A stretch of 64,000 nucleotides of DNA from Treponema sp. (GCA_022510845.1 JAFLSR010000011.1:2128-66127); one strand, 5' to 3'. Shown: positions 9,138 to 63,321, counted from the first letter of the stretch. The notes: generated by a model not told the origin, from the sequence alone. Numbers and translations are program-made.

Positions 9138-9166
9138 TTGAACTTTTTGCGGAATTCGCGTATTAT
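9138..9166 (+). promoter_or_regulatory. sigma70 promoter, likely leaderless transcript of the membrane-protein gene
   Basis: TTGAAC - 17 nt - TATTAT, then 6 nt, then ATG 9173. Confidence 0.6.
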
Positions 9167-9172
9167 GGCGTT

Positions 9173-9805
9173 ATGTTTTTGTTTTTATGCCTGCTTTTTC
9201 CTTTGGGATTTTTTATTTGGACGCGCTCGAATGACGATGGCGCGTTGAGATTTCTTGCGCCCGCTTTTTTCGGCGTTTTTGTTTCCGCAATTTTTTGCTC
9301 GTTCAAATATTTTTTCCTGCCGTTCTATTATTTGCCGCAGGATTCGTTTTTTAGGAATTTCTTGCACATATTCTTCGGTTATGTTTTCGTGCCGCTTGTG
9401 GCGATGTCCGTCCTGTGTTTTTTGCTTGAACGGCGCAGGGAGGTTTTTTCGCGCTTCGAAAACTTTTTTCCGCTTTGCACGGGATTTTATGCCATTTACC
9501 TTCCGTTCAGAATTTTGAGCGAAAAACTTCCGATTCCGTTTTTTTTGCTTTTCGCAAAACCCCTGATTTATTTTTTTATGATTCTCGGAGTTTCGAAAAT
9601 TCTCGTCGCGCTTTTTGAAAAGAATCGAACGAACATGACGAACGGCTCAAAAAAATTTTTTTTGGTTTATGCGCTTGTTTTTGCGGTTTTGTTTCCTGCT
9701 GTGCTTGAAGCGGCTTGGATGGTCGGCGCGAATGCCATTCTCACGATAATTTTGACGCTCGTGTATTTGGCTTTTGCCGCGGGAATTTCCGCGCTTGACA
9801 AATAG
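9173..9805 (+). CDS. Hypothetical polytopic membrane protein
   Basis: Several Phe/Leu-rich hydrophobic segments; start placed at ATG 9173 from the upstream promoter. Confidence 0.65.
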   Translation: MFLFLCLLFPLGFFIWTRSNDDGALRFLAPAFFGVFVSAIFCSFKYFFLPFYYLPQDSFFRNFLHIFFGYVFVPLVAMSVLCFLLERRREVFSRFENFFPLCTGFYAIYLPFRILSEKLPIPFFLLFAKPLIYFFMILGVSKILVALFEKNRTNMTNGSKKFFLVYALVFAVLFPAVLEAAWMVGANAILTIILTLVYLAFAAGISALDK

Positions 9806-9826
9806 GTTTTTGCGGCCCTCCGCGCC

Positions 9827-9853
9827 TAAACTTTTTTCTCGTTTTGCCGAAAA
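9827..9853 (+). promoter_or_regulatory. sigma28 (FliA)-type promoter of flgB
   Basis: TAAA (9827-30) - 15 nt - GCCGAAAA (9846-53), against consensus TAAA-N15-GCCGATAA. Confidence 0.7.
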
Positions 9854-9860
9854 TTATGGT

Positions 9861-10283
9861 ATGAACAGTTTTTCGCGGTCAATAGATTTGTTGCAAAAGG
9901 CTCTCGACGTGAATGCGTTGCGCTACCAAGTTACGGCGAACAATATCGCAAATGCCGAAGTGCCGAATTTCAAGCGTTCCACGGTGAATTTCGAAAGCGA
10001 GTTGAAGCGGGCGTTCGAGTCAAGGAAAAACGCGCGCAATTCGTTCGATCTGACTCGCACGAATTCAAAGCACGTTTCGATTCACAACGTAATCGACCCT
10101 GCTTCGGTGAAGCCGCGCCGCACGGTGGATTGGGCTTCCACAGAAAATTCGAACGGAAACAGCGTCAACATCGAAACCGAAGCGATGAACGTCATCAAAA
10201 TTCAGATGCAATACAGACTTTTGAGCCAGCTTGAGAATTTTGAATTCAGTCAAGTACGCACGGCGATGCAGCCGAACAGATAG
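9861..10283 (+). CDS. flgB: Flagellar basal body rod protein FlgB
   Basis: ANNIANAEVPNF motif and NGNSVNIETE; precedes flgC. Confidence 0.95.
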   Translation: MNSFSRSIDLLQKALDVNALRYQVTANNIANAEVPNFKRSTVNFESELKRAFESRKNARNSFDLTRTNSKHVSIHNVIDPASVKPRRTVDWASTENSNGNSVNIETEAMNVIKIQMQYRLLSQLENFEFSQVRTAMQPNR

Positions 10284-10432
10284 CGCGGTTGTGATGCGGC
10301 TTTTCGTTTGATTTAGTGGGAAGTCGGCGCAAAAATTTTGATATACTGCGCGTTCTCATTGCTTTGCGAACGCGCGTAAAAAAATATTTTGCAATTTTGA
10401 AAAATTGTAAAATATTTTTTTTGGAGGAGAAA

Positions 10433-10891
10433 ATGGGAATTTTTTCTAGCATAAACATCGCTTCCACAGGATTGAGCGCGGAGCGGCTTCGCACCGATGT
10501 CATTTCAAACAACATCGCGAACGCTTCCACGACACGCACCCAAGAAGGCGGCGCGTTCAAACGCTCGCGCGTGGTTTTCCAGCCGGTGAGCGATTCGAAT
10601 CCAACGTTCCGCACGCCATACCTTCCTTCGAATTTGGACAACGGTCCTGGAAAGGGCGTTAAAGTCCGCGAGATTGTGAAAGACACTTCGGAGGGAAAAC
10701 TCGTCTACGATCCCGACCATCCGGACGCGATAAAAAGCGGACCGAATGCGGGCTATGTGGAATACCCGAACGTCAACATTGTGAACGAAATGGTGGACTT
10801 GATTTCGGCATCGCGCGCATACGAAGCGAACACTACGGTAATCGAAGGTTCGAAAGATATGTTCAGCGCGGCGCTTGAAATCGCGAGATAA
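10433..10891 (+). CDS. flgC: Flagellar basal body rod protein FlgC
   Basis: ISNNIANASTT, YDPDHPDA, PNVNIVNEMVDLISASRAYEAN; GGAGGA RBS. Confidence 0.97.
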   Translation: MGIFSSINIASTGLSAERLRTDVISNNIANASTTRTQEGGAFKRSRVVFQPVSDSNPTFRTPYLPSNLDNGPGKGVKVREIVKDTSEGKLVYDPDHPDAIKSGPNAGYVEYPNVNIVNEMVDLISASRAYEANTTVIEGSKDMFSAALEIAR

Positions 10892-10941
10892 ATAAGATAT
10901 TCTGAAACCTTGAAAATTTTAATTGGGAGGAAACAAGGAAA

Positions 10942-11289
10942 ATGAAAATCAACGAAATGCAGGTCCTTCAGATGAAGGGCTTTGAAAACATTCAAAATAC
11001 AAACCCACTGAAAACTCCGGCATATCTCAACTTGAATTCTGCGGCGGAGGAAAGTCAGCGGCTCAATGAAAACTCTTTCGGCGAATTTCTCGCGGATGCC
11101 GTTTCGCAGATGAACAAGCAGCAGACGGAAGTTTCGGCGATGGAAGAGCAACTCATCACAGACCCCGATAGCCTTGACATTCATGATGTTACCACGGCGA
11201 TGGCGAAGGCGCAAATGTCGATGACGCTTGCGAAGACAGTCGTTGACCGAATCGTGACTGGCTGGAACGAGATTACTACTACAAGGTAA
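10942..11289 (+). CDS. fliE: Flagellar hook-basal body protein FliE
   Basis: SFGEFLADAV...DIHDVTTAMAKAQMSM...VDRIVTGWNEI; follows flgC. Confidence 0.9.
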   Translation: MKINEMQVLQMKGFENIQNTNPLKTPAYLNLNSAAEESQRLNENSFGEFLADAVSQMNKQQTEVSAMEEQLITDPDSLDIHDVTTAMAKAQMSMTLAKTVVDRIVTGWNEITTTR

Positions 11290-11333
11290 CTTTGAGTGAC
11301 AAGTGTTCGAAATCGGCGGGGCGCGTCTTGTAT

Positions 11334-11414
11334 GCAGGGCGATGCCCTGCTACCGAGTTTCGCATAGCGAAACTCGCGACGGCTCTGCATCGCAAGCCGT
11401 TGGCTTGCGATGCA
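11334..11414. repeat. Cluster of three perfect hairpins with 3-nt loops (REP-like)
   Basis: GCAGGGC-gat-GCCCTGC; CGAGTTTCGC-ata-GCGAAACTCG; TGCATCGCAAGCC-gtt-GGCTTGCGATGCA. Confidence 0.8.
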
Positions 11415-11572
11415 GGGGAATTGCGCTTCACAAAACATTCAAAAATGTTGTGTTGCTTTCTGTTCATGTCTTTCTGATTTGCTGGCAAATTCATTTTTGG
11501 CAATTCCAAATGCGCAAGGAGTTTGTTTTCTGAAACGGCTTTTCGTTTTGGAAAAAATGATGGGGAAATCAA

Positions 11573-12394
11573 ATGGAATCTAATGAGCACATTGTTCGGG
11601 AGGGGGTATACGTTCCTCCCACCGACACGGTTTGGCCTGAGAAGCCGGATGAGGCCGCCTTGCAGGTGAAAAAACTGCGCGAAGTAAAAGTTGACGAAAA
11701 CTATCCGTTTTTGGATAAGACGTTCAAAGGCTGGTTTTTCCGCAACATCATCTATTCCACGATTTTCACGCTCGTTTTTCTTTTGCAGCATCTTCGTTAT
11801 GGAATAAAAATCGAGGGAAAGAAAAATATCAGGCGCAACAAGGCGCTTTTCAAAAACGGCGCGCTCACTGTATGCAACCATGTCTACCGATGGGATTTTT
11901 TGGCGGTTGTGCAGGCTACAAGGAAGCGGGCGTATTTTCCGGCGCGCGCGGAAAACCTCGGCGGAAGCGATTCTCTTTTGATTCGTTCTGTGGGCGGAAT
12001 TCCCATCGCAGAAAATTTCGCGGGAATGAAAAAATTCTACGAAGCGTTCGACAAACTCCATGCGAAGAAAAAGTGGTTCCATGTTTTCCCCGAATCTTGC
12101 CGTTGGCAGTGGTATCAGCCGCTTCGCCCGTTCAAGCGCGGCGCATTCGAATTCGCACATCGGTACAACATTCCGGTCATTCCGATGGTGATTTCCTATC
12201 GCGAGCCGAAAGGTTGGCGAAAGCTGATTGGGATAAAGCATCCGCTTGTTACGCTGCGCGTAGGCGAGCCATTTTTGCCTGACCAAAGCATTTCTTCAAA
12301 GCAGGATTCAATTCGAATGCGAGAAATCGCGTTCGAAAAAATGCGCGAGATGGCTGGAATTGTTAAGAACAAGTGGCCGTGCGAAGGCGACTGA
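11573..12394 (+). CDS. Lysophospholipid acyltransferase (PlsC family)
   Basis: HxxxxD motif NHVYRWD; VFPES and PFKRGAF blocks. Confidence 0.85.
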   Translation: MESNEHIVREGVYVPPTDTVWPEKPDEAALQVKKLREVKVDENYPFLDKTFKGWFFRNIIYSTIFTLVFLLQHLRYGIKIEGKKNIRRNKALFKNGALTVCNHVYRWDFLAVVQATRKRAYFPARAENLGGSDSLLIRSVGGIPIAENFAGMKKFYEAFDKLHAKKKWFHVFPESCRWQWYQPLRPFKRGAFEFAHRYNIPVIPMVISYREPKGWRKLIGIKHPLVTLRVGEPFLPDQSISSKQDSIRMREIAFEKMREMAGIVKNKWPCEGD

Positions 12395-13516
12395 TTATTT
12401 GCAAGAAATCAAATCGTATTGCCGCGTTCCAAGCCCGATTTTTTCGCCGTGCTCAAGCGCGGTTTCCCAAACTGAGGCGTGGGTGGAATCGCGCCACAAG
12501 TCGTTCGTGGCTTTGTAGCCTGCCTTTATGTGGTCTCCGATTTGGGTGTCCTTGAAACGCTCCGCCTTTTGGCAGAGTTCGCTTGAAGCGGCATCCAACG
12601 CAACGGGGTCGAAACTTGCGAGCATTCCCAAATTCGGGATGAGCGGCGCGTCGTTATAGGCGTGGCAATCGCACCAAGGGCTTACGTCACGAATGATGTT
12701 TATGTGGAAGCACGGGCGGTCTGCGCAAACGGCGAGCGTATATTCTGCCATTTTGCGTCCCAAATCCTCGAACGCTCCTTCGTTCGGATTGTAGATTGCG
12801 TCGAAATTGCACGAGCCGATGCATCGTCCGCAGCCCTTGCATTTTTCTTGGTCGATTACTGCCTTTCTTTCGACGTATGAAATCGCGTCGCTTCCGCATT
12901 CCTTGGCGCACATTCGGCAGCCACGGCAGGCTTCCTTGTTTACAAGCGGCTTTCCGGCGTTGTGCTGAATCATCTTTCCGGCGCGGCTTCCGCAACCCAT
13001 TCCGATGTTTTTGATTGCCCCTCCGAATCCCGCTGCTTCGTGCCCTTTGAAGTGCGCGAGCGAGATGAAGATGTCGGCATCCATCACGGCGCGTCCGATG
13101 AGCGCAGTCTTGCAAAGTTCGCCGTTCGGAACTGGAACTTCGATGTCGTCAGTGCCTTTGAGACCGTCGCCGATTATTATGGGACAGCCCGTGGTGACGG
13201 AATTGAAGCCGTGCTTTTCGGCGCAGTGGAGGTGTTCGATTGCGTTTTTGCGCGAACCGGGATAAAGCGTGTTGCAGTCGGTGAGGAAGGGCTTTCCGCC
13301 CAATTCCTTGACAAGTTCCGCCACGGCGCGCGCGTAATCCGGGCGAAGGTACGACATATTGCCGTCTTCTCCGAAATGCATTTTTATTGCGACGAGTTTT
13401 TTGTCGAAGTCGATTTTTTCGATTCCGGTTGTTTTCAAAAGCCGCTTGAGCTTCCGTTCGATTCCGCCGTCTTCAGTAACGCGGAAATCCGCAAAAAAAA
13501 CCTTTGCCTTTTCCAT
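12395..13516 (-). CDS. DUF362 domain Fe-S protein with two [4Fe-4S] ferredoxin motifs
   Basis: VAIKMHFGE, HFKGHEAAGFGGAIKNIGMGC; CRGCRMCAKEC and CKGCGRCIGSC. Confidence 0.88.
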   Translation of the reverse strand: MEKAKVFFADFRVTEDGGIERKLKRLLKTTGIEKIDFDKKLVAIKMHFGEDGNMSYLRPDYARAVAELVKELGGKPFLTDCNTLYPGSRKNAIEHLHCAEKHGFNSVTTGCPIIIGDGLKGTDDIEVPVPNGELCKTALIGRAVMDADIFISLAHFKGHEAAGFGGAIKNIGMGCGSRAGKMIQHNAGKPLVNKEACRGCRMCAKECGSDAISYVERKAVIDQEKCKGCGRCIGSCNFDAIYNPNEGAFEDLGRKMAEYTLAVCADRPCFHINIIRDVSPWCDCHAYNDAPLIPNLGMLASFDPVALDAASSELCQKAERFKDTQIGDHIKAGYKATNDLWRDSTHASVWETALEHGEKIGLGTRQYDLISCK

Positions 13517-13668
13517 TACTACCTCTTTAAAAAACTCCGCGTTAGCGATTTTGGGTTATACGAGTTGCGTGTCTAATTAAACGCTGATTTGTGCGCGGCT
13601 CAGTAAAATCTTCAAGCGATAAAAATTCAATCATATTATAAATCAATTTGGCGAAAAAATCAACCTAC

Positions 13669-13697
13669 TTGGAACATTTTTTTGAATTCATTATAAT
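13669..13697 (+). promoter_or_regulatory. sigma70 promoter, likely leaderless MATE transcript
   Basis: TTGGAA - 17 nt - TATAAT, then 7 nt, then ATG 13705; no Shine-Dalgarno. Confidence 0.65.
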
Positions 13698-13704
13698 TGG
13701 CTAT

Positions 13705-15045
13705 ATGACGAAGGATTTGACAGAAGGAAAACCGCTCACGCTCATAGTGAAGTTTTCGTTTAGCATCCTTTTGGGATTGCTTTTCCAGCAATTCTACAAC
13801 ATCGTTGACACTGCGATTGTCGGGCGCGCTCTTGGACCTGAGGCTTTGGCGGCGGTGGGATGCACGGGAAGCGTCTGCTTTTTGCTTTTGGGATTTTGCA
13901 ACGGAGTGTCAGGCGGATTCACGCTTCCGATTGCGCAGAAATTCGGCGCGAAGGATTTTTCTTTGATGCGGACCTATGTTTGGAACGCCGCGTTTTTGTG
14001 CATAATTTTTTCCGTTGTGTTCACTGTGGGAACTGCGATTCTCTGCGGTCCGATTCTCGTCTTGATGAGGACGCCGGAAAGGATTTTGAATGATTCGGTC
14101 TCATACCTGCGCATCATTTTCCTCGGGATTCCGTTTTTGTTTCTGTACAATTTCATCGCGAATTTGATGCGCTCGCTTGGCGACAGCAAGACGCCGCTTT
14201 ATTTTTTGGTAGCCTCTTCAATCTTGAATATTTTGCTGGACTTGTTTTTCATACGAGTTTGTTCGATGGGAGTGGCGGGCGCGGCGTTGGCGACTGTGAT
14301 TTCGCAGGCGTTGCCGGGCTTGGTGAGCCTTGCTTTTTTGCTGAAGAATTTTTCGATTCTGAAAATGAGCCGCAAAGAAAAAGTCATCGCGAAAAAGCAT
14401 TGCTTCGAACTGTGCCGATTCGGAATTCCGATGGGCTTGCAATATTCGATTACGGCAATCGGAAGCGTGATATTGCAATCTTCGGTGAACGGACTTGGAC
14501 ATTATACCGTGACTGCGATTTCTGCTGGAATGAAAATCAATATGCTTTTTGCGAGTGTGTTCGATTCGTTCGGGCTTACGATGGCGACTTATGGCGGGCA
14601 GAACACTGGGGCTGCGAAGTACGACAGGCTTGTGCATGGCGTTCGCGACTGTATGCTGATTTCGGCGGTGTACAGTATTGTGGCGTTTGCGGCGGTTTTT
14701 TTCTTTGGAAAGAATTTTATCTACATCTTTTTGAAGAACCCTACCGAAAAAATTCTGGACGAAGCATATATTTTTCTTCTTGCGAATTTCGGATTCTACA
14801 TCACGCTCGCCGCGGTGAACATCTATCGCTTTATGATTCAGGGAATGGGATTTTCCGCGTTCTCGATGTTTTCGGGACTTGCGGAAATGCTTGCGCGCGC
14901 GGCGATGGGAATCTTCGCCGTTCCGCTTTTTGGAATATATGGCGCGGTTTTCGGAAGCCCCGCCGCATGGGTTTTGGCTGACTGCTTTTTGATTCCCGCG
15001 TTTTATCATTGCGTGAAAAAATTGAAAAGCGCGAAAAGAATTTGA
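13705..15045 (+). CDS. MATE family efflux transporter
   Basis: MTKDLTEGKP, FQQFYNIVDTAIVGR, GDSKTPLYFL, GVAGAALATVISQ. Confidence 0.93.
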   Translation: MTKDLTEGKPLTLIVKFSFSILLGLLFQQFYNIVDTAIVGRALGPEALAAVGCTGSVCFLLLGFCNGVSGGFTLPIAQKFGAKDFSLMRTYVWNAAFLCIIFSVVFTVGTAILCGPILVLMRTPERILNDSVSYLRIIFLGIPFLFLYNFIANLMRSLGDSKTPLYFLVASSILNILLDLFFIRVCSMGVAGAALATVISQALPGLVSLAFLLKNFSILKMSRKEKVIAKKHCFELCRFGIPMGLQYSITAIGSVILQSSVNGLGHYTVTAISAGMKINMLFASVFDSFGLTMATYGGQNTGAAKYDRLVHGVRDCMLISAVYSIVAFAAVFFFGKNFIYIFLKNPTEKILDEAYIFLLANFGFYITLAAVNIYRFMIQGMGFSAFSMFSGLAEMLARAAMGIFAVPLFGIYGAVFGSPAAWVLADCFLIPAFYHCVKKLKSAKRI

Positions 15046-17732: not shown

Positions 17733-19787
17733 TTACGAGCCATTGTTTGCGAGCATTTTCCGCATATTCGCCAAAATGTCTGCGGCTTTCTTTGCGTCCA
17801 CGGCTTTGGAAGGCTCGTGGTATGTCACCAAGTTCGCGGGGATTTCGTCCAAAAATCGCGAAGGCTCGCATTCTGCAACGCTTTGCATTTTGCGCCGCTT
17901 TTTGCATGATGAAATGAAAAGTTTTTCCCGAGCGCGAGTTATCGCCACATAAAAAAGCCTGCGCTCTTCTTCCAAATTGTTTTCGTCTTCTTCCAACGAG
18001 CGGGCGTGCGGAATGATTCCGTCTTCCGCGCCTGCGATGAACACCACGGGAAATTCAAGTCCTTTCGAAGCGTGAATCGTCATCAAATTGACGCTGCCTT
18101 TTTTTTCATCGTCGTCGCCGTCATCGCGATTTATGAGCGTGATCCGGTTCAAATAATCATAGAGGCTTGCCTCGCCTTCGTTGTCGGGGTCTTTTTCCCA
18201 AACCTCGATTGAGCGGATGAGACTTTCGATGTTCATGTATTTGAATCGCGCTGCCTTTTCGCTTTTCGGGTTTTCCAAAATCAAATGATCCCAATAATTT
18301 ATTTCGTCCACCAGCGCGCGCACTTTTTTTGCAAGGTCTTTTCCGCCGAGCATCGAAGAATTGTTTTCGATGATTTTCGTAAAGTCCTCCAAATCCGAAA
18401 TGGATTTTTGGGGAAGCGCGCTTTCTCCAAGCGCGAATTCTTCGAACGATTTTATCGTCTGCCACAGCGATTTTTTTTCTTCCGCCGCCGCATCGTTCAA
18501 AATGGAAAGGGTCGCGCGTCCGATTCCGCGCCGCGGCACGTTCAGGATTCTGCGCAGGTTCACGTCGTCATCGTGGTTTGCGATTACGCGAAGATAACTC
18601 AAAATGTCCTTGATTTCCCTGCGCTCAAAAAAACTCGTTCCGCCGCTCATCGTGTACGGAATGTTCGCAGCGAGAAAGGCTTCTTCGATTTGGCGGCTTT
18701 GCGTGTTGGCGCGCATGAGCACTCCGAAATCGCCGTACTTGAGGCCTTCTTCGGCGCAAAGTCCCTGAATCGATTCCGCGATGAATTCCGCTTCTTCGGT
18801 TTCGTTTTCGGGCATGAAGATTTCAATCGGCTTTCCCGAAACTTTTGAAGACCAAAGTTTTTTTTCCTTGCGGTTCGTGTTGTGGCTTATCACTCCGTTC
18901 GCCGCTTCCAAAATCGTTTCGGTGGAACGGTAATTGTGCTCAAGGCGGATTTCCTGCACGTCCGGAAAATCCTTTTCAAAGTTTACGATGTTTTGGTAAT
19001 CCGCGCCGCGCCAACTGTAGATGGACTGGTCGTCGTCTCCGACAACTGCGATGTTCGCGCGGGGATTTTCGTTTTGCTCGCCTGGAATTCCTTTCGCCAA
19101 AATCCGCATCATTTCATACTGCTGGTGGCTCGTGTCTTGGAATTCGTCCACCATGATGTATTTGTAGCGCGAGCGGTATTTTTCGAGCGCGTCCGGGAAT
19201 TCGCGGAAAATCCTTATCGGAAGTACGATGAGGTCGTCGAAGTCCACGGCGTTGTAAAGCTTCAAGCCTTCCTGATACGATTTATAAAGTTCGCGGTAAA
19301 TGTCGGTTTCCGCCTTCCATTCTTTTCGCCCCGTCTTGATGTCGGAAAAAAGAATCGCGATTTTATAGCAGTCCAGCGCGTCGGCGGACATTTTGAGTTC
19401 GCGCCCGCTTTCTTTTATCAACGCGATTTTGTCGCTTTCGTCATAAATCGTAAAATTCTCGCGCCAGCCCAGCCGTGCGATTTCCTGCCTGAGAATCTTT
19501 ACGCCGAAAGCGTGGAAAGTGGAGACGGTGATGTTTTTGAGTTTTTGCCCGGTGATTTCCTTTATGCGCCCTTCCATTTCCCGCGCCGCCTTGTTCGTGA
19601 ATGTGAGGGCGAGAATTTGGCTTTGCGGAATTCCTTTTTCAAGCATGTGCGCGATGCGGTATGTGATTACGCGAGTTTTTCCGCTGCCCGCGCCCGCGAT
19701 AATAAGGAGCGCGCCTTCCGTGGTGGTGACGGCTCGGAATTGCTCGGGATTGAGTTCGGCTTTCAAGGTTTCAAGATTCAGTGGCAT
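17733..19787 (-). CDS. UvrD/Rep/PcrA superfamily-1 DNA helicase
   Basis: AGAGSGKT, VDEFQDT, VGDDDQSIYSWRGA, NYRST, HASKGLEF, EERRLFYVAITRA. Confidence 0.95.
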   Translation of the reverse strand: MPLNLETLKAELNPEQFRAVTTTEGALLIIAGAGSGKTRVITYRIAHMLEKGIPQSQILALTFTNKAAREMEGRIKEITGQKLKNITVSTFHAFGVKILRQEIARLGWRENFTIYDESDKIALIKESGRELKMSADALDCYKIAILFSDIKTGRKEWKAETDIYRELYKSYQEGLKLYNAVDFDDLIVLPIRIFREFPDALEKYRSRYKYIMVDEFQDTSHQQYEMMRILAKGIPGEQNENPRANIAVVGDDDQSIYSWRGADYQNIVNFEKDFPDVQEIRLEHNYRSTETILEAANGVISHNTNRKEKKLWSSKVSGKPIEIFMPENETEEAEFIAESIQGLCAEEGLKYGDFGVLMRANTQSRQIEEAFLAANIPYTMSGGTSFFERREIKDILSYLRVIANHDDDVNLRRILNVPRRGIGRATLSILNDAAAEEKKSLWQTIKSFEEFALGESALPQKSISDLEDFTKIIENNSSMLGGKDLAKKVRALVDEINYWDHLILENPKSEKAARFKYMNIESLIRSIEVWEKDPDNEGEASLYDYLNRITLINRDDGDDDEKKGSVNLMTIHASKGLEFPVVFIAGAEDGIIPHARSLEEDENNLEEERRLFYVAITRAREKLFISSCKKRRKMQSVAECEPSRFLDEIPANLVTYHEPSKAVDAKKAADILANMRKMLANNGS

Positions 19788-19793
19788 TGGAAA

Positions 19794-19822
19794 ATTATAG
19801 CAGGTTTCGCAATGTTAGTTAA
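19794..19822 (-). promoter_or_regulatory. Extended -10 promoter, likely leaderless helicase transcript
   Basis: Minus strand TTAACT - 17 nt - TATAAT with TG extension; 6 nt to ATG 19787. Confidence 0.6.
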
Positions 19823-19895
19823 TAGCAAAAATGAAAAACCATTCGTCGCCGATTTTTTTCTCATCACTCAATTTTATTTTTCCGATAATTAAAAA

Positions 19896-21044
19896 GTGAA
19901 ACCATTTTTCAAAATCTTGATTTCGTTTTTTCTTGCTAACGCATTTTTCGCCGCGGCACAAGTTTCATCGGGCAATTTTTTGCTCGGCGTGCCGGACGCC
20001 TTTGCGGGGCTTTGGGAGCGGGACGACCGTTTTGTGATGTTCGCGGAAAGCGAGGATTTTTTGGAAAGCCGTGTGCAGGAATTTCTTTCAAGTCCCGAAG
20101 CGAGCGATGATGAAAAAAACGCGGTGCGCAATCAGGCGAAATACGTTTCGATTTTGCTGAAAACTTTTTACGGCTGGTATTTGGACCGCACGGCGGAGCC
20201 GGAATCTTTTTCATCCGAAGCGCGTTTTGTGAACGATTCGACTTGCCCCGAAGCCGAACGGATTCGAGTGGAGTTCCGCCCGCTTTTGCGCATGGCTGAT
20301 GTAGTCGGCGCGGATCAGGGCGAAGGTTCTGTTTGGGAAATTTTCATACGCTATCCCGGAGTGCGCGAGCCTGCTATAATTCCGCTTGCGATAATCGGCG
20401 GAAATTTGTATTTGAATTTCGCGATAAAATTGAACACTGAGAATGACGAAAGCCGTGAAGTTACGGACGATGAAACTGGCGAAAATCCGCCTGACGAACT
20501 TTTGGGATTTTGGTGTTCGCTCGTTCCCACTGACGGAGTGAAGGTCTCGCTTCCTGCGAGCGGCGAAAACATTTATTCAACCTACATCACGCGCGATTCG
20601 GTTTACACGATTCGATATTGGAAAACCGATATGGAATATTCGCAGGAGCGGGCGTTCTTTTCGGATGGCGGAAAAACTTTTTCCGTGGTGAAGCACATTC
20701 AAAGCGGGGGGAAGAATTTTTCTTGCACGAACGGACGCAGCGTAACGATTCGCAACGTGCAAAAAACAAGCGCGCTCCCGGAAGTCTACGAACTTGATTC
20801 TTCAGCCACAATATGCGGACTCGGCGAGCCGTATTTGAGGCGCGTCCAAAACGAAAACAGCGTTCAAACTGTGGCGCGTCTTGTGCGTGATGCGATGTCG
20901 AAAAAAGCCCCAAACCCAGATCCTCCTTTTCCGCCTAGCAACCTTGATTTTCACATGGAAGAAATTTACAGGCTCGAAGAGGGCAACCTCATAATACAAT
21001 CACTTCGCAAGCGAAACAAAGATTTCGGAAAGCTGTCGCAATAA
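19896..21044 (+). CDS. Hypothetical exported protein
   Basis: Signal-peptide-like MKPFFKILISFFLANAFFAAAQ; no recognised domain. Confidence 0.7.
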   Translation: MKPFFKILISFFLANAFFAAAQVSSGNFLLGVPDAFAGLWERDDRFVMFAESEDFLESRVQEFLSSPEASDDEKNAVRNQAKYVSILLKTFYGWYLDRTAEPESFSSEARFVNDSTCPEAERIRVEFRPLLRMADVVGADQGEGSVWEIFIRYPGVREPAIIPLAIIGGNLYLNFAIKLNTENDESREVTDDETGENPPDELLGFWCSLVPTDGVKVSLPASGENIYSTYITRDSVYTIRYWKTDMEYSQERAFFSDGGKTFSVVKHIQSGGKNFSCTNGRSVTIRNVQKTSALPEVYELDSSATICGLGEPYLRRVQNENSVQTVARLVRDAMSKKAPNPDPPFPPSNLDFHMEEIYRLEEGNLIIQSLRKRNKDFGKLSQ

Positions 21045-27584: not shown

Positions 27585-29000
27585 TTAATGGCCGCTTATA
27601 TATTTCCTGTATTTTTCGGGATTCACTCTGAACGCAACAATTGGAGAATCTGCGTCCTCGCTTGCGTGGAACAAAGCTTGCTCGGCTTCCGTCTTGAGTC
27701 GGTCCACGGAAATCAGTCGCAGCGAACGGCTTGAAATTCCGATGACGGGCTTCGCATTTTGCTTTGCTTCTTTTAGAATGTTTGCGAGTGCCGCATACAA
27801 TTTTTCTGCGCTTTGCATCGCGTCATCAACGTCCTTGTCTTGAATGATTGCCGCAAAGCCGTCCGTCTTGTATTCAAAAATAAAATCCTTGTATTGAAAA
27901 GTATCCAATAACGCTTCGCAGATTTTTGGATGGCATTCGTGCTTTGAAGTGATTCCCGGAATTCGAACAAGGACAAGCGCCAAATCTTGCTCGCTGGAAG
28001 CGGCGCGGACGAGTTCGCTTTCAAGGCGTTGCGAAAGATATGATTCCCATCCGAATCCGCTTGCGGGCGAAAACAAACCTTGCTCATCGCTTCCGTTGGT
28101 TTGGGAAATTTGTTTTGGACCGAGCGTTTGGCCGGGCGATGTGGAATCCTGCTCTTCATCTTCTTGCGCCTCATTTTCTGCTGGCTCTTCCTGCGCAACG
28201 GTTTTTTCATTTTCGAAATCTGGCTCAGGCAAAACAGGATTTTCAGGAAGCGCGGCATTTGAGTTTTCAACAGAATCTTTTGCGCCAACTTCGACTGCGG
28301 TTTTTTCTTCTTCGGTCTTTTCCTCGGAAACTTGCGAATTGCTTTCGTCCGAAAATTTTGGCTCGTCCTCTTCCTGCGAATCGATTTCTTCTTCAAGCAA
28401 GTCTTCTTCCGGCAAGTCGATGTCGTCTTCAAGCGAATTCTCTTCGCCAAAATCATCGTCATCAAAAAGCGACTTTTGTGCCTCGTCGCTTTTCTTTGTC
28501 TTCATTTCGGAGTCCGAAAGATAAAGGTACATCAGCAAAATGCAAGTTGTAAGAGTTCCTGCCAAAATTACGATGAACGCGATTTTCGCGCGGTCGAAAA
28601 TCATCGTCGGCGAAAGCGCGTAGATGTTCGCGAAAAGTTCGATTCGTGAGCCGTCGCCGCCTGCGATTCGCGTGCTGAAAGTTTTTACAAAAAACGAATT
28701 TGATTTTGTGGGAACGGAAGGATAGAGGTAAACTTCTGTTCCGTCAACTTCAAGTCTGAGCAGTTCGTAGAAATTGGGCGCGCCCACTGCGGAATTGAAT
28801 GCGTCGATGAATTCTTTCGAGCCGGAAGGATAGATGCCGCTCGTTTCTGCCGTCTTGGAAGAAAGTTTTTCAAATCTTGTGGCGGCACTTTCTGCGCCAG
28901 ATTTATAATCGTTATAAACGCTTGCTGCAAAAGCCGCGATGGTCAGAACAAAAACACAGGCAATCAAAATCGCCGCAATGGAAATACCGCTCTTTCTCAT
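27585..29000 (-). CDS. Membrane protein with acidic linker and degenerate GGDEF-like C-terminal domain
   Basis: Two TM helices, Asp/Glu-rich middle, C-terminal RLESELVRAA...LALVLVRI...FEYKTDGFAAII...VIGIS fold pattern without a GG(D/E)EF motif. Confidence 0.65.
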   Translation of the reverse strand: MRKSGISIAAILIACVFVLTIAAFAASVYNDYKSGAESAATRFEKLSSKTAETSGIYPSGSKEFIDAFNSAVGAPNFYELLRLEVDGTEVYLYPSVPTKSNSFFVKTFSTRIAGGDGSRIELFANIYALSPTMIFDRAKIAFIVILAGTLTTCILLMYLYLSDSEMKTKKSDEAQKSLFDDDDFGEENSLEDDIDLPEEDLLEEEIDSQEEDEPKFSDESNSQVSEEKTEEEKTAVEVGAKDSVENSNAALPENPVLPEPDFENEKTVAQEEPAENEAQEDEEQDSTSPGQTLGPKQISQTNGSDEQGLFSPASGFGWESYLSQRLESELVRAASSEQDLALVLVRIPGITSKHECHPKICEALLDTFQYKDFIFEYKTDGFAAIIQDKDVDDAMQSAEKLYAALANILKEAKQNAKPVIGISSRSLRLISVDRLKTEAEQALFHASEDADSPIVAFRVNPEKYRKYISGH

Positions 29001-30622
29001 AAATTCTTATTATACCATAAAATTTTATTCAGTGCAAGCAGAAAATCGCGCCTAGCGCAAAATGTTTCGGTTTTTTTGTTGCGAAGGAACGCGAGGTAGG
29101 GAAGGGCGATTTTTGAAAAAGGCGAGTTCGTGTCGATTTCGCATTCGCAGGAATTCATTTTTGCGATTTCGGATTCGATTCCTTTGGAAAGCGCGTCTTT
29201 GAATGAGTTCATATTGAAGCGTGGCGAAAAAAAATCTGCTTGCAATGTCGAGGCTTTTTTGAGATTCGCGCTCCAGAGAAAATTTTTGTATTCAAAAAAT
29301 TCCGCGTTGACTGAAAGCCATTGCGTGAAACTGTTTTTATACGAATCGAGCACTTGGTTTTTTGCGGCGGAATTTTTATCAAGCGAAATTTTTTCAAGGG
29401 GAGTGCGGAACATCAGGCTTGAGAATTTTTTTTCCGCGCTTTCGATTTTGTCTTCCGTGGCGCGGTAAAGTTCATCCAAATAAGTTCCGAGCGCGTAAGG
29501 CTTTCCCCGAGAGTAGGCGAAGTCCGCGCCGAATACCTGAATTTTTTCAAAGCCGCATTTTTTGGCGAAGTCCGCCGCGGCGATTGTGACTGTTCCGCTT
29601 CCGCTTTCAAGGAGGGGGAATGGCGTTTCGCAGAATCGGGCGGCGAAAGAGGCGAGCGGGTGGTGCGACGCGCAAAAAATTATTTTTGACGAATTTTCAT
29701 ACAGCGCGTTTGCGATGCTCGCATCGGAATCCAAACTCAATACGAAAATCGTGTCGCGTGATTTTTTGCCGATGAAATGGTTCGCGCTCAAAGATTGCGC
29801 GTCAATCGAAACTGCCGCGTCCGGAACAATTCCGGTTCTCATCAAAGCCTTGAAACTCGTGTCGGTGGCGATGACAAAATATTTTTCCCGCGCGTCTTTT
29901 ATTTTTTTCGCGCTTCCATCGAGACTTGGGCCTGCGGCGATTATCGCGGCGATTTTTTTTGTGTCGATTTTTGCGGAGTTTGTCTCGCTCGCATATCGAA
30001 GGTTGGCTTGCATTTTTTGAAGCGTCTTCAAATTGCAAAAAATATTTTTTTGCCACAACGCGCCGAAATGCGACTGCACTGAAAAATCCGCAGCGATTTT
30101 TTTTAACGAGCCTTCGATTTCCTGCGAAATTTTTTCGTAAAGAATTTTATCCTCGTCCGCCCAAGCGCGCATCGTCAAAATGCTCAGGTCGCCGTGGACT
30201 GCCGGAAAATAGTTTTTGAAAATTTCTTCCTGCAAATTTTCAGGAAAAGCGACGGAGAAATTTTCGCGCATGGAAATTTCTTTTACACAAGGTATTTCGC
30301 TTTTTAAAAAATCGTAGTCTTCGCGCGATTTTTCTATGCAAAGAATTTTGCATTTTTGATTTCGTTCCAAAAAAGATTTTATGTGGTAGCCGCCTGCGAT
30401 TCCCAAAATCATGGTAAATTTCGCGCCATCGCTTTCCGCGCCGAAATTCCTTGCCTCGCGCTCTGGGGCGTATTTTGAGTGCGCCGCCTTTCCCGAAGCG
30501 AATACGGGAATTCTTTGAGAATTTTTTGCTGCGATAATTTCTTTGTAAAACAAATCTTTTCCTGTCCTGCCAACGAGTTTTTGTGAAACAAAAAACTCCC
30601 GTGTTAAAAACTGCGGCGGCAT
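28997..30622 (-). CDS. Motility-associated factor (Maf/DUF115) family protein
   Basis: HSKYAPEREA, IIAAGPSL, VIATDT, PDAAVSIDAQ, SGSGTV, FGADFAY; start uncertain. Confidence 0.8.
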   Translation of the reverse strand: MPPQFLTREFFVSQKLVGRTGKDLFYKEIIAAKNSQRIPVFASGKAAHSKYAPEREARNFGAESDGAKFTMILGIAGGYHIKSFLERNQKCKILCIEKSREDYDFLKSEIPCVKEISMRENFSVAFPENLQEEIFKNYFPAVHGDLSILTMRAWADEDKILYEKISQEIEGSLKKIAADFSVQSHFGALWQKNIFCNLKTLQKMQANLRYASETNSAKIDTKKIAAIIAAGPSLDGSAKKIKDAREKYFVIATDTSFKALMRTGIVPDAAVSIDAQSLSANHFIGKKSRDTIFVLSLDSDASIANALYENSSKIIFCASHHPLASFAARFCETPFPLLESGSGTVTIAAADFAKKCGFEKIQVFGADFAYSRGKPYALGTYLDELYRATEDKIESAEKKFSSLMFRTPLEKISLDKNSAAKNQVLDSYKNSFTQWLSVNAEFFEYKNFLWSANLKKASTLQADFFSPRFNMNSFKDALSKGIESEIAKMNSCECEIDTNSPFSKIALPYLAFLRNKKTETFCARRDFLLALNKILWYNKNL

Positions 30623-41367: not shown

Positions 41368-42393
41368 TCAGAAATCGTCTTCCATCAAGTCAAGGCTTGA
41401 GTCGAGCCATTTTTTTGTGAGCGCGGGAAAAATTTCCTGCACGGAAAGAAAGCATTGCACGGCGTTTTTGTATTCGCCGCAAAAATAAAAGCTTTCGCCC
41501 AGGTAGAATTCCGCGCGGTTCGTGGTGTCGGCATCTCGGTTCACGCTCAAAAAGTCGATTAAGAGCCTTGCGCTTTCGCGGTACTTTCTCTGCACAAGTC
41601 CTTCTCGCAACGTTTCGAACAGAATGTATTCATCGCCTCCGTCCGGCGCGAACATATCGTCCTCAAAAAAATACGGAGTTTTGAAAGGCTCTGCTTTCTT
41701 TTTGCCGCTGGGGTTCGCCAAATTCGCAACGCTTTGCTTCGCCTCGTCGCTCGTCTTGTGCGCCTCATCCCCAAATCCCAAAATGTCGGCTGGAAGTGGA
41801 AGCGGCATTCCGCGCATTCGGAATTCATCTTCTTGCGAAAGAAACGGAAGGTGCGACTTTTTTTTCTCCGGATTCTGCGCAACCTCAGGTTCCGCGGCGG
41901 GTTTTTGTGAAGTATCTTCTGACTCTTCGAAATCATCTTCCGCGTCTTCTTGCAAAGCCACAAAATCATTTTTTTCGTCTTTTTTTTGATAATCCTCGCT
42001 CTTTTCAGAAATTCTCGCGTGCGCACCCTTTGTCGTGACATTCATTCCGGGAATCACCGCCTTGTAGTCGCCGTAAGATGTGACCGCGATGACCGCATAA
42101 AAATAATCGCCCGCCTTTTGAATGAAGTCCGTGTGCCGCGTTTCGCTCAGCACCGCGATGGGGGAGTCCGCTTCGATTTCCTTGTAAGAAGTGATTGGCT
42201 TTGAAGCGCGGTAAAGTTTCGCGCCGACTATTTCCGGCACTGTTTGTTTCGGAAAATTCCATTCTATTTCGATAGTCCTGTCCGCGCCCGATTTTGCGGA
42301 AATCGCGTTCGCGATGGGGCGTGTTTGCGAAATCACGTTCGCGGAGCACAAAAAAATTGGCAGGAAGACCGCCGCGCTTTTTAAAAATTTCAT
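41368..42393 (-). CDS. Hypothetical exported protein with C-terminal TPR-like helices
   Basis: MKFLKSAAVFLPIFLCSANVIS signal; RAEFYLGESFYFCGEYKNAVQCF TPR-like; start trimmed to ATG 42393. Confidence 0.7.
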   Translation of the reverse strand: MKFLKSAAVFLPIFLCSANVISQTRPIANAISAKSGADRTIEIEWNFPKQTVPEIVGAKLYRASKPITSYKEIEADSPIAVLSETRHTDFIQKAGDYFYAVIAVTSYGDYKAVIPGMNVTTKGAHARISEKSEDYQKKDEKNDFVALQEDAEDDFEESEDTSQKPAAEPEVAQNPEKKKSHLPFLSQEDEFRMRGMPLPLPADILGFGDEAHKTSDEAKQSVANLANPSGKKKAEPFKTPYFFEDDMFAPDGGDEYILFETLREGLVQRKYRESARLLIDFLSVNRDADTTNRAEFYLGESFYFCGEYKNAVQCFLSVQEIFPALTKKWLDSSLDLMEDDF

Positions 42394-42399
42394 TCTTCC

Positions 42400-42428
42400 A
42401 TAATATCGCCAGAATCGATTTTTTGCAA
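42400..42428 (-). promoter_or_regulatory. sigma70 promoter, likely leaderless transcript
   Basis: Minus strand TTGCAA - 17 nt - TATTAT, then 6 nt, then ATG 42393. Confidence 0.65.
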
Positions 42429-46513: not shown

Positions 46514-46585
46514 TTGACTTTATTAAAAAAGCGGTTAAAATGGTAGTTGCGTGGGAAATTGTGGCATATTGTGGGATTTGGTGGT
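46514..46585 (+). promoter_or_regulatory. dcw promoter and MraZ-binding direct repeats
   Basis: TTGACT - 16 nt - TAAAAT, then GTGGG/GTGGC/GTGGG/GTGGT at 46551, 46561, 46571 and 46581 (10-nt period). Confidence 0.8.
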
Positions 46586-47029
46586 ATGAAGCGACTGTCC
46601 GGGGAATATTTCAACACCCTCGATGAAAAAGGCAGAATCTCTTTTCCTGCGAAAATTCGCGGCGATTTGCCCGGCAATTCGCTTTTTGTGACGAAGGCGT
46701 TGGACCACTGCCTTTGGCTTTTCGCGCCCGAAGAATGGGAAAAAGTTCGCGAAAGCATCGAAGGAAAGGCTTCGCTTTTTAAGCAGAATTCGCGCCTTGT
46801 TTCGCGCGTGCTTTGCGCTCCCGCTGTGGAAGTGGAATTCGACAAGAGCGGAAGGCTTTTGGTGCCGCCGTCTTTGCGCGAATACGCGGGGCTTTCCAAG
46901 GATTGCGTGATTTTGGGCTTGGGAAATTACATCGAACTTTGGGATGCGGCGGCGTACAAGCAGTACATGGACGACAATGCAGATTCTTTGGCGAAGGCCG
47001 CCGAGGAATTGGGCGCGATTGGGTTTTAG
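46586..47029 (+). CDS. mraZ: Transcriptional regulator MraZ
   Basis: TLDEKGRISFP and EFDKSGRLLVPPSLREYA duplicated motifs; GNYIELWD. Confidence 0.96.
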   Translation: MKRLSGEYFNTLDEKGRISFPAKIRGDLPGNSLFVTKALDHCLWLFAPEEWEKVRESIEGKASLFKQNSRLVSRVLCAPAVEVEFDKSGRLLVPPSLREYAGLSKDCVILGLGNYIELWDAAAYKQYMDDNADSLAKAAEELGAIGF

Positions 47030-49969: not shown

Positions 49970-49970
49970 A

Positions 49971-56399: not shown

Positions 56400-56442
56400 A
56401 TTTGAATTGATGAAAAAAATATAGTTTTTACAGGAGGCTTCT

Positions 56443-57918: not shown

Positions 57919-57921
57919 GAT

Positions 57922-60684: not shown

Positions 60685-61042
60685 GCTTTTGAAACTGGGA
60701 GAGCAGATTCGCGGCGAAATCGCGACGATGCTTTTGCGCGGGGAAATAAAAGATCCGCGTGTTTCCAATTTTCTCACGATAAACCGCGTGGATGTTTCCG
60801 CCGATCTCGCCCACGCAAAAGTCTATGTTTCCACTTTTATGACTGAATCGGAATTGGCACGCGGAGTGGAAGGCTTGTGCAGCGCGGCTGGCTACATTCA
60901 ATCCACAATCGCGAAGAAACTCACAATCCGCCAATTCCCGCATTTGCATTTTGTCGCCGACACTTCGATTCGCGACGGATTCGAGATGGTGAAAAAAATC
61001 GACGAGATTGTGAAGGATGACGAATCGAAGGCTGGAAAATGA
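60671..61042 (+). CDS. rbfA: Ribosome-binding factor A
   Basis: IKDPRV, VDVSADLAHAKVYVS, RQFPHLHFVAD; overlaps the infB end. Confidence 0.95.
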   Translation: MGQYRLLKLGEQIRGEIATMLLRGEIKDPRVSNFLTINRVDVSADLAHAKVYVSTFMTESELARGVEGLCSAAGYIQSTIAKKLTIRQFPHLHFVADTSIRDGFEMVKKIDEIVKDDESKAGK

Positions 61043-62129
61043 AAGCAAGGACGCGATTGTGCTTTTGGCAAAGCGTCCGGGCGTTACGAGTTTTTCTTCG
61101 CTTAAAATCATAAAGAAGATTTTGGGCACGAAAAAAATCGGGCACACTGGAACGCTCGACAGTTTCGCGCAAGGACTTTTGGTTTGCTGTTCAGGCGCAC
61201 TCACGCGGCTTGCGGGGTTGATAACCGAATTTGACAAGACCTATGAAGCGGTAATCGAATTTGGAAGCGAGACCGACACGCTTGACCCGACTGGCGAGGT
61301 GGTAAAACGCGCCCCGCTTCCGACACTTCACGCTTTTTTGAACTCGCTTAAAAAATTTTCTGGAAAGATGAATCAGACTCCGCCCGCGTTCAGCGCGATA
61401 AAAATCGGAGGTGCGCGTGCAAGCGACATTCTTCGAAAAGGCGAGCGTGTTGAAATTCCCACGCGTGAGATTTTTGTCTATGGCTCGAAATTGAAAGAAA
61501 TCCAATTTGAGGATGATGGTTCGAAAACTTTTTCTTGCGAAACTTCCGATGACTTTTTGTGCCCGGAAAACGAAAAAAACTTGGCGCGAAAGATAAAGTA
61601 TGCTCGTGTTGAATTCCGCGTGAGCAAGGGCACATACATACGAAGCCTTGCGCGCGACATCGGCTGCGATTGCGAAAGCGCGGCGCACCTTGCGGGACTT
61701 TTGAGGACGAGCGTGGGCGCGTTCAGTTTGCGCGATGCGGCCTTTTGCGGAGAACTCACGCCTTTTACGATTCAAAGCGTCGTGCGCGCGCTTGAAAGCG
61801 GATGCGCGGAGCGCGACATCGACATGGAATCCGCCGAAAAAGAAGTTATGGAAAAACTTCAAGGAATGTCGCCTGATTTGGCGCGCGCCTGCGGATTCGG
61901 TGTGGCACTTCTCAAGGCGGAACGCGCGGATGATTTTTTTCACGGAAGGCCAGTAAAAAAATCATCCTTTGCTTCGTTGCAGGAAAATTGCGAGGCGGAA
62001 AAAACGCGCGAGCAGGATTGCGGAAAATATGCCGTCTTTCTTGAAAAAAGCGCGGCCGCGTTTTGTGGCGTTGTGCGCAGGGAAGGCGAGAGATTTTTCT
62101 ATGAGTTCGTGCTTTCGGGAAAGCAGTGA
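61017..62129 (+). CDS. truB: tRNA pseudouridine(55) synthase TruB
   Basis: KIGHTGTLDSFAQG, PPAFSAIKIGG, SKGTYIRSLARDIG. Confidence 0.95.
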   Translation: MTNRRLENESKDAIVLLAKRPGVTSFSSLKIIKKILGTKKIGHTGTLDSFAQGLLVCCSGALTRLAGLITEFDKTYEAVIEFGSETDTLDPTGEVVKRAPLPTLHAFLNSLKKFSGKMNQTPPAFSAIKIGGARASDILRKGERVEIPTREIFVYGSKLKEIQFEDDGSKTFSCETSDDFLCPENEKNLARKIKYARVEFRVSKGTYIRSLARDIGCDCESAAHLAGLLRTSVGAFSLRDAAFCGELTPFTIQSVVRALESGCAERDIDMESAEKEVMEKLQGMSPDLARACGFGVALLKAERADDFFHGRPVKKSSFASLQENCEAEKTREQDCGKYAVFLEKSAAAFCGVVRREGERFFYEFVLSGKQ

Positions 62130-62185
62130 AGTTCGAGGCGAAGGGCGCTCCTAGGTTTCTGCTTGGCGCGCATCGCCTTTCATAA

Positions 62186-63286
62186 TTAGTCTTCTTTCAG
62201 CCGGTAGTTCGTGCTGCGTCCGCCCGCTGTCGGCACGCGCTCTAGAATGCCTTTTTCGATGAGGTCGGTGATGTCGCGCAGAGCGGTGTCGGCGGAGCAT
62301 TTTGCGATTTTCGCCCATTTCGACGAGTTCAATACGCCGAACCAGTCGCCGCCTGTGAGCCGCTCCAGCATGTGCGACTGCCGCTCGTTCAGAGGAACGC
62401 CCACAGTCTTTTGGCGGAACGAGTATTTTTTGAGGACGTTTTCCGTTTCCACGATGCTTTCGTCCAAGGCTTTTTGCAGACAGTCCAAGAACCACACGAG
62501 CCAGTTTGTGATGTCAGGCGAGCCGTGTTGCGCGCGCTCCAGAGCATTGTAGTATTTTTTCTTTTCGAGCGAGATTTGGCTTGACATGCTGTAGAAGCGG
62601 AGATTCGTGCGGTCGCTGCGGCAGAGCATCATGTCGGAAATCGTCCGCGCGATTCGTCCGTTCCCATCCTCAAATGGATGGATGGTGACGAACCAGAGGT
62701 GCGCTATTGCGGCGGCTATGAGTGAGTCCTCCGCTTTTTTCGGGGAATTTAGCCAGCCGAGAAATGCGTCCATCTCTTTCGGAACGCGCCTTGCGGGCGG
62801 TGCTTCGTAATGCACTTTTTCCTTGCCGATTCTGCCTGAGACCACTTGCATCGCGCCCGAGCGATATTGCGCCACCTCGATTCTGCTCATGCCGCTGTAG
62901 CCCGTGGGAAAAAGGCAGGCGTGCCATGCGAAGAGCCGTTCCTTGGTGAGAGGTTTTCCGTATTTCTGCGTTGCGTCAAGCATCATTTCCACGATCGCGT
63001 CCACGTTCCTGTCTGTTTTCACTGGCTTCCGCAAATGGATTCCGAGCCTCCTCGCGATTGACGAGCGCACTTGATCCGAATTGAGCAAAAATCCTTCGAT
63101 TTCGCTTGACTTGATGACATCGTTCGCAATTGTGAGCAGGGTTTTGTCTTCCTTTTGAGAAAGCCCTAGAAGTTCCATCTTCGCGAGCAGCCGCCCCTGC
63201 GTCATGTGACAACCCTCTAGCAGCGGAGTGAGCCTTTTCGAGTCATACGAAAAACTAGGCCATTCGGCGTACTCATAGATATACAT
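62186..63286 (-). CDS. Fic family protein (DUF4172-like N-terminus, C-terminal HTH)
   Basis: Complete Fic motif HPFEDGNGRIAR; inhibitory-type SSEIEG motif; C-terminal SSKWAKIAKCSADTALRDITDL HTH. Confidence 0.93.
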   Translation of the reverse strand: MYIYEYAEWPSFSYDSKRLTPLLEGCHMTQGRLLAKMELLGLSQKEDKTLLTIANDVIKSSEIEGFLLNSDQVRSSIARRLGIHLRKPVKTDRNVDAIVEMMLDATQKYGKPLTKERLFAWHACLFPTGYSGMSRIEVAQYRSGAMQVVSGRIGKEKVHYEAPPARRVPKEMDAFLGWLNSPKKAEDSLIAAAIAHLWFVTIHPFEDGNGRIARTISDMMLCRSDRTNLRFYSMSSQISLEKKKYYNALERAQHGSPDITNWLVWFLDCLQKALDESIVETENVLKKYSFRQKTVGVPLNERQSHMLERLTGGDWFGVLNSSKWAKIAKCSADTALRDITDLIEKGILERVPTAGGRSTNYRLKED

Positions 63287-63292
63287 GAGATT

Positions 63293-63321
63293 ATTGTAGG
63301 ATTTTTTGCGGAGATTGTCAA
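63293..63321 (-). promoter_or_regulatory. sigma70 promoter, leaderless Fic transcript
   Basis: Minus strand TTGACA - 17 nt - TACAAT, then 6 nt, then ATG 63286. Confidence 0.8.

Follow-up and report, generated by a model that had tools for sequence, protein, structure and literature searches.

The window analysed here is a 64,000-nt stretch (C3:2128-66127) of a Treponema sp. assembly of 2.21 Mb (86 contigs, 47.5% GC), and five of its genes, encoding a membrane protein, a MATE transporter, the UvrD helicase, a secreted or lipoprotein-like protein and a Fic/DUF4172 protein, have predicted leaderless starts (ATG 9173, 13705, 19787, 42393 and 63286, respectively). The best explanation, which we regard as very probable from the sequence evidence, is that ordinary sigma-70 promoters are placed so as to produce leaderless mRNAs from about 300 genes of this genome, beside a majority of genes led by a Shine-Dalgarno (SD) motif.

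Promoter layouts in the window

An earlier examination of the window from its sequence alone, here called the sequence-only reading, had listed eight sites at which a promoter abuts a start codon, five of them clear and three weaker, and all eight were found to have the layout that it described (Table 1). No SD motif was found at any of the eight. The strict pattern TTGN3-N17-TAN3T-N6-ATG occurs three times in the window where 0.26 occurrences are expected, and none of 100 dinucleotide-preserving shuffles reached three. The sequence-only reading had also placed the transcription start (+1) on or next to the start codon, and as a prediction this is supported by the geometry of the motif. The -10 hexamer of a promoter occupies positions -12 to -7. 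We infer from this that +1 falls on the A when the spacing between the -10 and the ATG (d, in nt) is 6.

Table 1. Promoter and start codon layouts in the window (coordinates are those of the window; elements on the minus strand are given in their 5' to 3' order)
Feature	Position	Strand	Layout
Promoter and ATG of 210-aa membrane protein	9138..9175	+	TTGAAC 9138-9143, 17 nt, TATTAT 9161-9166, 6 nt, ATG 9173
Promoter and ATG of MATE transporter	13669..13707	+	TTGGAA 13669-13674, 17 nt, TATAAT 13692-13697, 7 nt, ATG 13705
Promoter and ATG of UvrD helicase	19785..19822	-	TTAACT 19822-19817, 17 nt, TGcTATAAT (-10 19799-19794), 6 nt, ATG 19787
Promoter and ATG of 341-aa secreted/lipoprotein-like protein	42391..42428	-	TTGCAA 42428-42423, 17 nt, TATTAT 42405-42400, 6 nt, ATG 42393
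Promoter and ATG of Fic/DUF4172 protein	63284..63321	-	TTGACA 63321-63316, 17 nt, TACAAT 63298-63293, 6 nt, ATG 63286
Sigma-28-type promoter and ATG of flgB	9827..9863 (box 9827-9853)	+	TAAAC-N15-GCCGAAAA, 7 nt, ATG 9861; Flg_bb_rod, FliA present
Internal promoter and ATG 29000	28998..29037	-	TTGCAC 29037-29032, 17 nt, TGgTATAAT, 8 nt, ATG 29000
GATAAT and GTG of signal-peptide protein	19884..19898	+	GATAAT, 6 nt, GTG 19896; without TANNNT box, -35 poor
Consensus promoter and incidental ATG 2709	2707..2747	-	TTGACA-17-TATAAT (2747-2719), 9 nt, ATG 2709

The genome-wide spacing peak

The pattern TTGNNN-17-TANNNT-Nd-ATG was counted on both strands of the whole genome independently of any gene caller. 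For d=0 to d=15 the counts were 20, 14, 15, 11, 18, 29, 126, 54, 44, 31, 26, 28, 29, 21, 12 and 18, giving a peak of 126 at d=6 against 11-29 at d=0-5 and d=10-15. At the peak, an open reading frame (ORF) of 100 codons or more begins at 104 of the 126 ATGs (median 267 codons), and the same is true of 37/54, 26/44 and 21/31 of the matches at d=7, 8 and 9. At the control spacings (d=2, 4, 10, 11 and 13) the share of long ORFs is about 7-27%, with medians of 14-24 codons. A histogram of the distance from the -10 to the start codon across the genome had been proposed as a check by the sequence-only reading, and it shows the peak at 6-7 nt that the proposal called for.

The same spacing was found when starts were taken from a crude home-made dicodon gene caller, which returned 1764 ORFs of at least 100 codons. 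TANNNT ends 6 nt before 240 of the early in-frame start candidates of these ORFs, compared with about 90 at other spacings, and no spacing peak for TANNNT was seen at internal ATGs. ATG accounts for 200 of the 240 starts, though it makes up only 45% of all candidates, and TTG starts showed no enrichment at promoter spacing anywhere in the genome. Several features that had not been selected for emerged at the TANNNT starts with d=6, namely a TTGaaa element at exactly 17 nt, the TGn of an extended -10 and a T at position -1 (T 47%, G 5%). Because the -35 at 17 nt and the TGn emerge unselected, the motif is read as a sigma-70 promoter and not as a ribosome-binding signal.

Two other readings of these data were considered. 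The pattern might be a product of chance, base composition or start calling, as only a small number of sites was visible in the original window; we give this reading practically no credence, since it is refuted by the flat profile at internal ATGs, the presence of the peak in the count made without gene calls, a reversed-pattern control that returned 9 matches in this genome against 126, and the window shuffles described above. The TAnnnT near the ATG could alternatively be an A/U-rich, non-SD translation signal (recognised, for example, by ribosomal protein S1), with transcription of a longer mRNA beginning at a more distant promoter. The possibility that A/U-rich upstream bias serves as an S1 signal has been raised (PMC5397173), and a full-length S1 gene lies in the window at 5026-6720. 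Against this reading stand the unselected TGn and TTG of the -35, the latter at a spacing of exactly 17 nt, and the width of the peak at d=6, which is a single base. The spacing logic also repeats with a different box, the sigma-28 GCCGAnAA (see below), and we consider the translation-signal reading very unlikely.

Loss of ribosomal protein S1 was considered as a correlate of the leaderless layout and was rejected, as a full-length rpsA is present (629.9 bits; five S1 repeats). In the window, cmk (4367-5002) and rpsA are adjacent but separate genes.

Protein starts at the predicted ATGs

Domains, signal peptides and orthologue alignments from residue 1 provide an indirect indication that the proteins start at the predicted methionines. 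In the Fic protein read from ATG 63286, residues 2-83 align to positions 1-82 of the DUF4172 model, while the UvrD N-terminal domain begins at residue 12 of the protein read from ATG 19787. The MatE domain begins at residue 21 of the protein read from ATG 13705, whose homologues align from query residue 1-5, and the N-terminus of the product of the 42393 gene, MKFLKSAAVFLPIFLC, is a signal or lipoprotein-type peptide beginning at this ATG.

Public annotations of these genes vary. The 42393 gene is called at 341 aa in all matches listed, but the MATE gene is called at 446 aa (NCBI) and also at 448 and 465 aa, and the 9173 gene at 147, 200, 210 and 229 aa. The NCBI protein for the latter on this same contig is the 229-aa version, which starts at TTG 9116, upstream of the -35. 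The gene is preceded by a tRNA-Pro (9001-9073) and a terminator-like hairpin (9107-9121) and, as TTG 9116 lies inside the hairpin, the NCBI call is probably over-extended by 19 codons. The expectation of the sequence-only reading that several ORF starts had been set too far upstream was borne out at TTG 9101/9116 (moved to ATG 9173), TTG 13648 (to 13705) and TTG 42432 (to 42393). An upstream in-frame start candidate is present in 109 of the 296 genes of the leaderless-type class defined below. Since public calls disagree at such genes, start-sensitive work on Treponema is affected, including the prediction of signal peptides, lipoproteins and antigens in the many genomes recovered from gut and rumen metagenomes.

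The mraZ ORF offers a further example of an upstream TTG. It opens at TTG 46547 (window 46514-46590), and the conserved MraZ N-terminus MKRLSGEYFNTLDEKGR (MKRLSGEYF...) begins at an internal ATG. This internal ATG is probably the real start. A TTGACT-17-TAAAAT promoter precedes it by about 40 nt, and mraZ would accordingly be leadered. From this layout, the division cluster appears to be leadered.

The promoter of the Fic gene (63293-63345) is flanked and interrupted by CCGCAAA/TTTGCGG half-sites: ccgcaaattttgcgg precedes the -35, and the spacer contains ccgcaaa. TTTGCGG is likewise present in the spacer (9144-9160) of the 9173 promoter. These half-sites may be a candidate operator for a regulator.

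Size of the class and coexistence with SD-led genes

A score combining promoter and ATG was calibrated on 11,117 internal ATGs, and genes with a score of at least 6 and d=5-9 were classed as leaderless-type. A score of at least 6 was reached by 298 early in-frame ATGs, against 9.6 expected from the internal-ATG null. The class contains 296 of the 1764 genes, 172 of them with d=6, 55 with d=7, 34 with d=8, 18 with d=9 and 17 with d=5. An SD-like motif was found at only eight of the 296 starts. Where the upstream neighbour is known, leaderless-type genes generally head transcription units (254 of 274, with a divergent neighbour or a gap of >40 nt). The upstream neighbour is divergent for 428 genes, of which 149 (35%) belong to the leaderless-type class and 159 are preceded by a strong SD.

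In the other genes GGAG, AGGAG or GGAGG peaks 5-8 nt upstream of the start. That ribosomal, division and rod genes other than flgB use GGAGG-type SDs had been proposed by the sequence-only reading, and agrees with what was seen in the window, where flgC, fliE, rsmH, a Mur ligase, ftsW, ftsZ and nusA are led by SDs of the GGAG/GGAGG type. No downstream signal was detected in the leaderless-type genes, and A-richness after the ATG is no greater in them than in the SD-led genes.

Taken together, two modes of translation initiation would coexist in this genome. Most genes, including those within operons and the ribosomal, division and flagellar-rod genes, would rely on an AGGAGG-type SD. About 300 genes that head transcription units and lack an SD would instead have a sigma-70 promoter (TTGaaa, 17 nt, often TGn, TAtAAT) ending 6 or, less often, 7-9 nt before the ATG. 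RNA polymerase is predicted to initiate on the first base of the ATG or 1-3 nt ahead of it, yielding an mRNA with no leader, and by analogy with leaderless mRNAs elsewhere the 5'-terminal AUG would be bound by a ribosome carrying the initiator tRNA. The restriction to ATG is consistent with SD-independent initiation at a 5'-terminal AUG of the kind known from such mRNAs. The transcription start and the mode of ribosome binding are the predicted parts of this scheme; the observed parts are the spacing of the motif, its enrichment across the genome, the lack of SDs, the limitation to ATG, the fit of the N-termini and the conserved position in orthologues. The same layout would be used behind sigma-28-type promoters by flgB and a few cell-envelope genes.

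Several points weigh against this interpretation. Strong matches to promoter plus ATG that do not correspond to a gene start are found in the window at 2709, 36050, 30669, 19864 and 44858, and the ORFs at the last four are only 19-55 codons long; a promoter beside an ATG does not by itself make a leaderless gene. The share of leaderless-type genes, 10% when d=6 alone is counted and 17% for d=5-9, is an estimate that depends on the thresholds and on the home-made gene calls. The codon-bias score is slightly lower in leaderless-type genes than in SD-led operon heads (0.477 vs 0.531, p=1e-7), and leaderless-type genes may be modestly expressed and hard to confirm. Genes with d=8-9 may carry leaders of 1-3 nt, and all +1 positions are predicted from sequence alone.

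The matches without a gene start raise the question of whether real promoters generally sit beside ATGs that are only incidental, with true starts further downstream behind an SD and mRNAs that are leadered. ATG 2709 behaves in this way, as its ORF is non-coding and an SD-led ATG at 2443 lies downstream, and the four further short-ORF matches are probably likewise incidental. As a general account this is very unlikely, because the great majority of ATGs at d=6 open long ORFs, far above the share at control spacings, and because these methionines coincide with the beginnings of Pfam domains and signal peptides and orthologues align from residue 1.

Conservation in orthologues

The closest relatives of the window, judged by UvrD, are uncultured Treponema from gut metagenomes (90-95% identity), followed by other rumen and gut Treponema at 69-79%; UvrD of the cultured strain Treponema parvum ATCC 700773 is 70% identical. 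The start could be identified at 70 Treponema uvrD loci with 69-95% identity, and TAnnnT was found 6-9 nt before the aligned ATG in 47 of them. On inspection, most of these 47 also have TTGnnn about 17 nt further up, in surrounding sequence that has diverged. A few lineages (L025, L030, L031, L037, L038 and L042) carry an AGGA or GGAG leader in place of the promoter at the ATG. One of them, L025, is labelled Desulfovibrionaceae, but its 71% identity to Treponema UvrD suggests a mis-binned contig.

The family of the 9173 gene is far more diverged. Its orthologues within the genus share 24-42% identity and, in 24 of the 27, the box lies 6-9 nt before the aligned ATG, with a spacing of exactly 6 nt in 17. 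That the position is kept while the sequence is not provides the best argument, short of RNA data, for the predicted leaderless starts. Orthologues that differ only in having the leaderless or the SD-led form make up a natural comparison set, and the genes identified here provide a testable list for 5'-end mapping in cultured treponemes, though they reveal no new mechanism.

Distribution across genomes

The d=6 pattern was found in each of the 24 genomes examined from the same genus (28-148 matches) and each of the 16 from the same order (33-243 matches), with 0-37 matches in the reversed control. A close mouse-gut relative had 159 matches (reversed control 8) and T. parvum ATCC 700773 had 82 (reversed control 16). 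In a 400-kb sample of the T. parvum genome, matches that open long ORFs numbered 7, 7, 3 and 7 at d=6-9; most other spacings gave 0-1, with 3 at both d=0 and d=12. A genome of 1,139,633 bp from the same family, tentatively T. pallidum-like, had 10 matches against 7 in the reversed control. On this evidence the predicted leaderless layout is a property of the lineage and no peculiarity of the window.

In families that are tentatively Borrelia-like and Leptospira-like, no excess of TTG-17-TAnnnT-6-ATG was found by a scan that detects consensus sigma-70 promoters only and under-reports leaderless mRNAs with other promoters. Mapped data from Leptospira (below) contradict this lack of signal, and a missing signal in the scan thus does not show that leaderless mRNAs are absent.

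flgB and sigma-28-type promoters

The sequence-only reading had singled out flgB as the exception to SD use among the rod genes, and the gene was indeed found to start 7 nt after a sigma-28-type box. The true start is ATG 9861 (MNSFSRSIDLL...) and not TTG 9774 of the longer ORF, and the Flg_bb_rod domain is present in the protein. Both a TAAA-N15-GCCGATAA-type box upstream of this flagellar gene and a gene for FliA were found, the FliA homologue scoring 287.6 bits against a cut-off of 189.6. With this layout, flgB would be leaderless from the promoter of an alternative sigma factor.

The sigma-28 promoter elements demonstrated in T. denticola are TTAA and CCGATAA (PflaB2; PMC9481697), and the flgB promoter has the same elements, with TTAA/TAAA, about 15 nt and CCGATAA. 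The two differ in the distance to the gene, as the mapped start of T. denticola flaB2 is 124 nt from the start codon (PMC9481697) whereas the flgB box ends 7 nt before the ATG.

Across the genome, 9 of 80 sigma-28-type boxes have an ATG 5-10 nt downstream that opens at least 80 codons, with about 3.2 expected. Among the products of these candidates are an RlpA-like protein, an OmpA-family protein and a LysM-M23 peptidase, whose signal peptides begin at the methionine. The statistics for a sigma-28 leaderless class are modest, and we regard it as a secondary observation. When the flgB loci of relatives were examined, a sigma-28-type box, either in full or as the -10 half only, was visible in most of 30 loci. 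The distance from the box to the ATG falls into classes of 7 nt (six of the 30 loci, including that in the window), about 13 nt, and 18-23 nt with an AGG or GGA motif. These spacing classes indicate that the same gene switches between leaderless and SD-led forms.

Relationship to known leaderless systems

Other spirochaetes and other bacteria are already known to have leaderless mRNAs, and the predicted Treponema case adds a lineage. In the group C defined by GeneMarkS-2 (PMC6028130), which is typical of Actinobacteria and Deinococcus-Thermus, a Pribnow box lies 6-8 nt from the starts of first-in-operon genes and 25-50% of operons are predicted to be leaderless. The arrangement here is like that described in the paper, with the box at 6-9 nt, about 35% of unambiguous operon heads of the leaderless type and other genes led by SDs. 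It differs from what is described there in belonging to a Treponema lineage (Spirochaetota), in using almost only ATG as the start and in having a clear -35 and an extended -10. The main text of PMC6028130 makes no mention of Treponema.

Within the phylum, differential RNA sequencing of Leptospira interrogans (PMC5243855) found about 440 genes whose primary 5' ends lie no more than 10 nt from the start codon, including 184 that coincide with it, and recovered no sigma-70 motif. In Borrelia burgdorferi, 85 leaderless mRNAs have been mapped (PMC5314773). These species share with Treponema the phylum and many 5' ends at starts, but theirs are experimental maps while the Treponema set is sequence-based, with an explicit promoter geometry. 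Zheng et al. (2011; PMC3160421) used a TA-rich signal located about 10 nt before starts to predict leaderless genes and found 6 of 18 spirochaete genomes positive, with 1.8-6.9% of spirochaete genes leaderless and a mean of 19.2% in Actinobacteria. The figure of about 10-17% obtained here is close to the actinobacterial mean, though the methods differ and the figures are not strictly comparable.

The sequence-only reading had not known the trait as one described in gut treponemes. A literature search combining leaderless and Treponema found no paper on it, but novelty does not extend to the phylum, given the reports from other spirochaetes cited above. A broader proposal, to which we would give even chances, is that Treponema and its order join Actinobacteria and Deinococcus-Thermus as a further major lineage with about one third of transcription units leaderless. 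Under this proposal individual genes would retain the layout across deep divergence (24-42% identity), and it would extend to sigma-28 promoters. The spacing would be an evolvable switch between the two initiation modes, with small changes repeatedly converting the layout to short SD-bearing leaders, as in orthologues of flgB and uvrD.

Weaker sites

The three weaker sites of the sequence-only reading fared differently; the one at ATG 29000 is plausible, the leaderless start at GTG 19896 was not supported and ATG 2709 proved not to be a gene start.

ATG 29000 overlaps the stop codon of the preceding gene by 4 nt (ATGA), and the promoter lies inside the 3' end of that gene. A near-leaderless start from an internal promoter is probable here, as judged from the layout. 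Translation of this gene may alternatively be coupled to that of the upstream gene via the ATGA overlap, leaving the promoter-like match functionless, and start-stop overlaps commonly support termination-reinitiation (PMC6728339). We hold coupling alone to be a real possibility, though one with less than an even chance, because the promoter match is strong and because d=8 is enriched for genuine gene starts across the genome. Coupling and an internal promoter could also act together at this site.

GTG 19896 probably does begin a protein with a signal peptide. A leaderless status for it was not supported, as its box, GATAAT, departs from TANNNT and its -35 is poor. The region is kept in one relative only (L002, with uvrD 94% identical), which is too close to be informative. 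Over the whole genome GTG starts show a marginal excess, with 11 and 8 at d=6 and 7 compared with about 3.

ATG 2709 was examined as the start of a small leaderless gene and was rejected, as the coding log-likelihood of its 84-codon ORF is -25.7 and the score is negative in all three frames. AAGGAG precedes the downstream ATG 2443, and the layout most likely reflects a promoter driving a leader of about 270 nt to this SD-led gene. A run of nine Cs is found at 2659-2667 on the minus strand, within the predicted leader between the promoter and ATG 2443. In T. pallidum, homopolymer tracts near promoters are phase-variation switches (PMC7864442).

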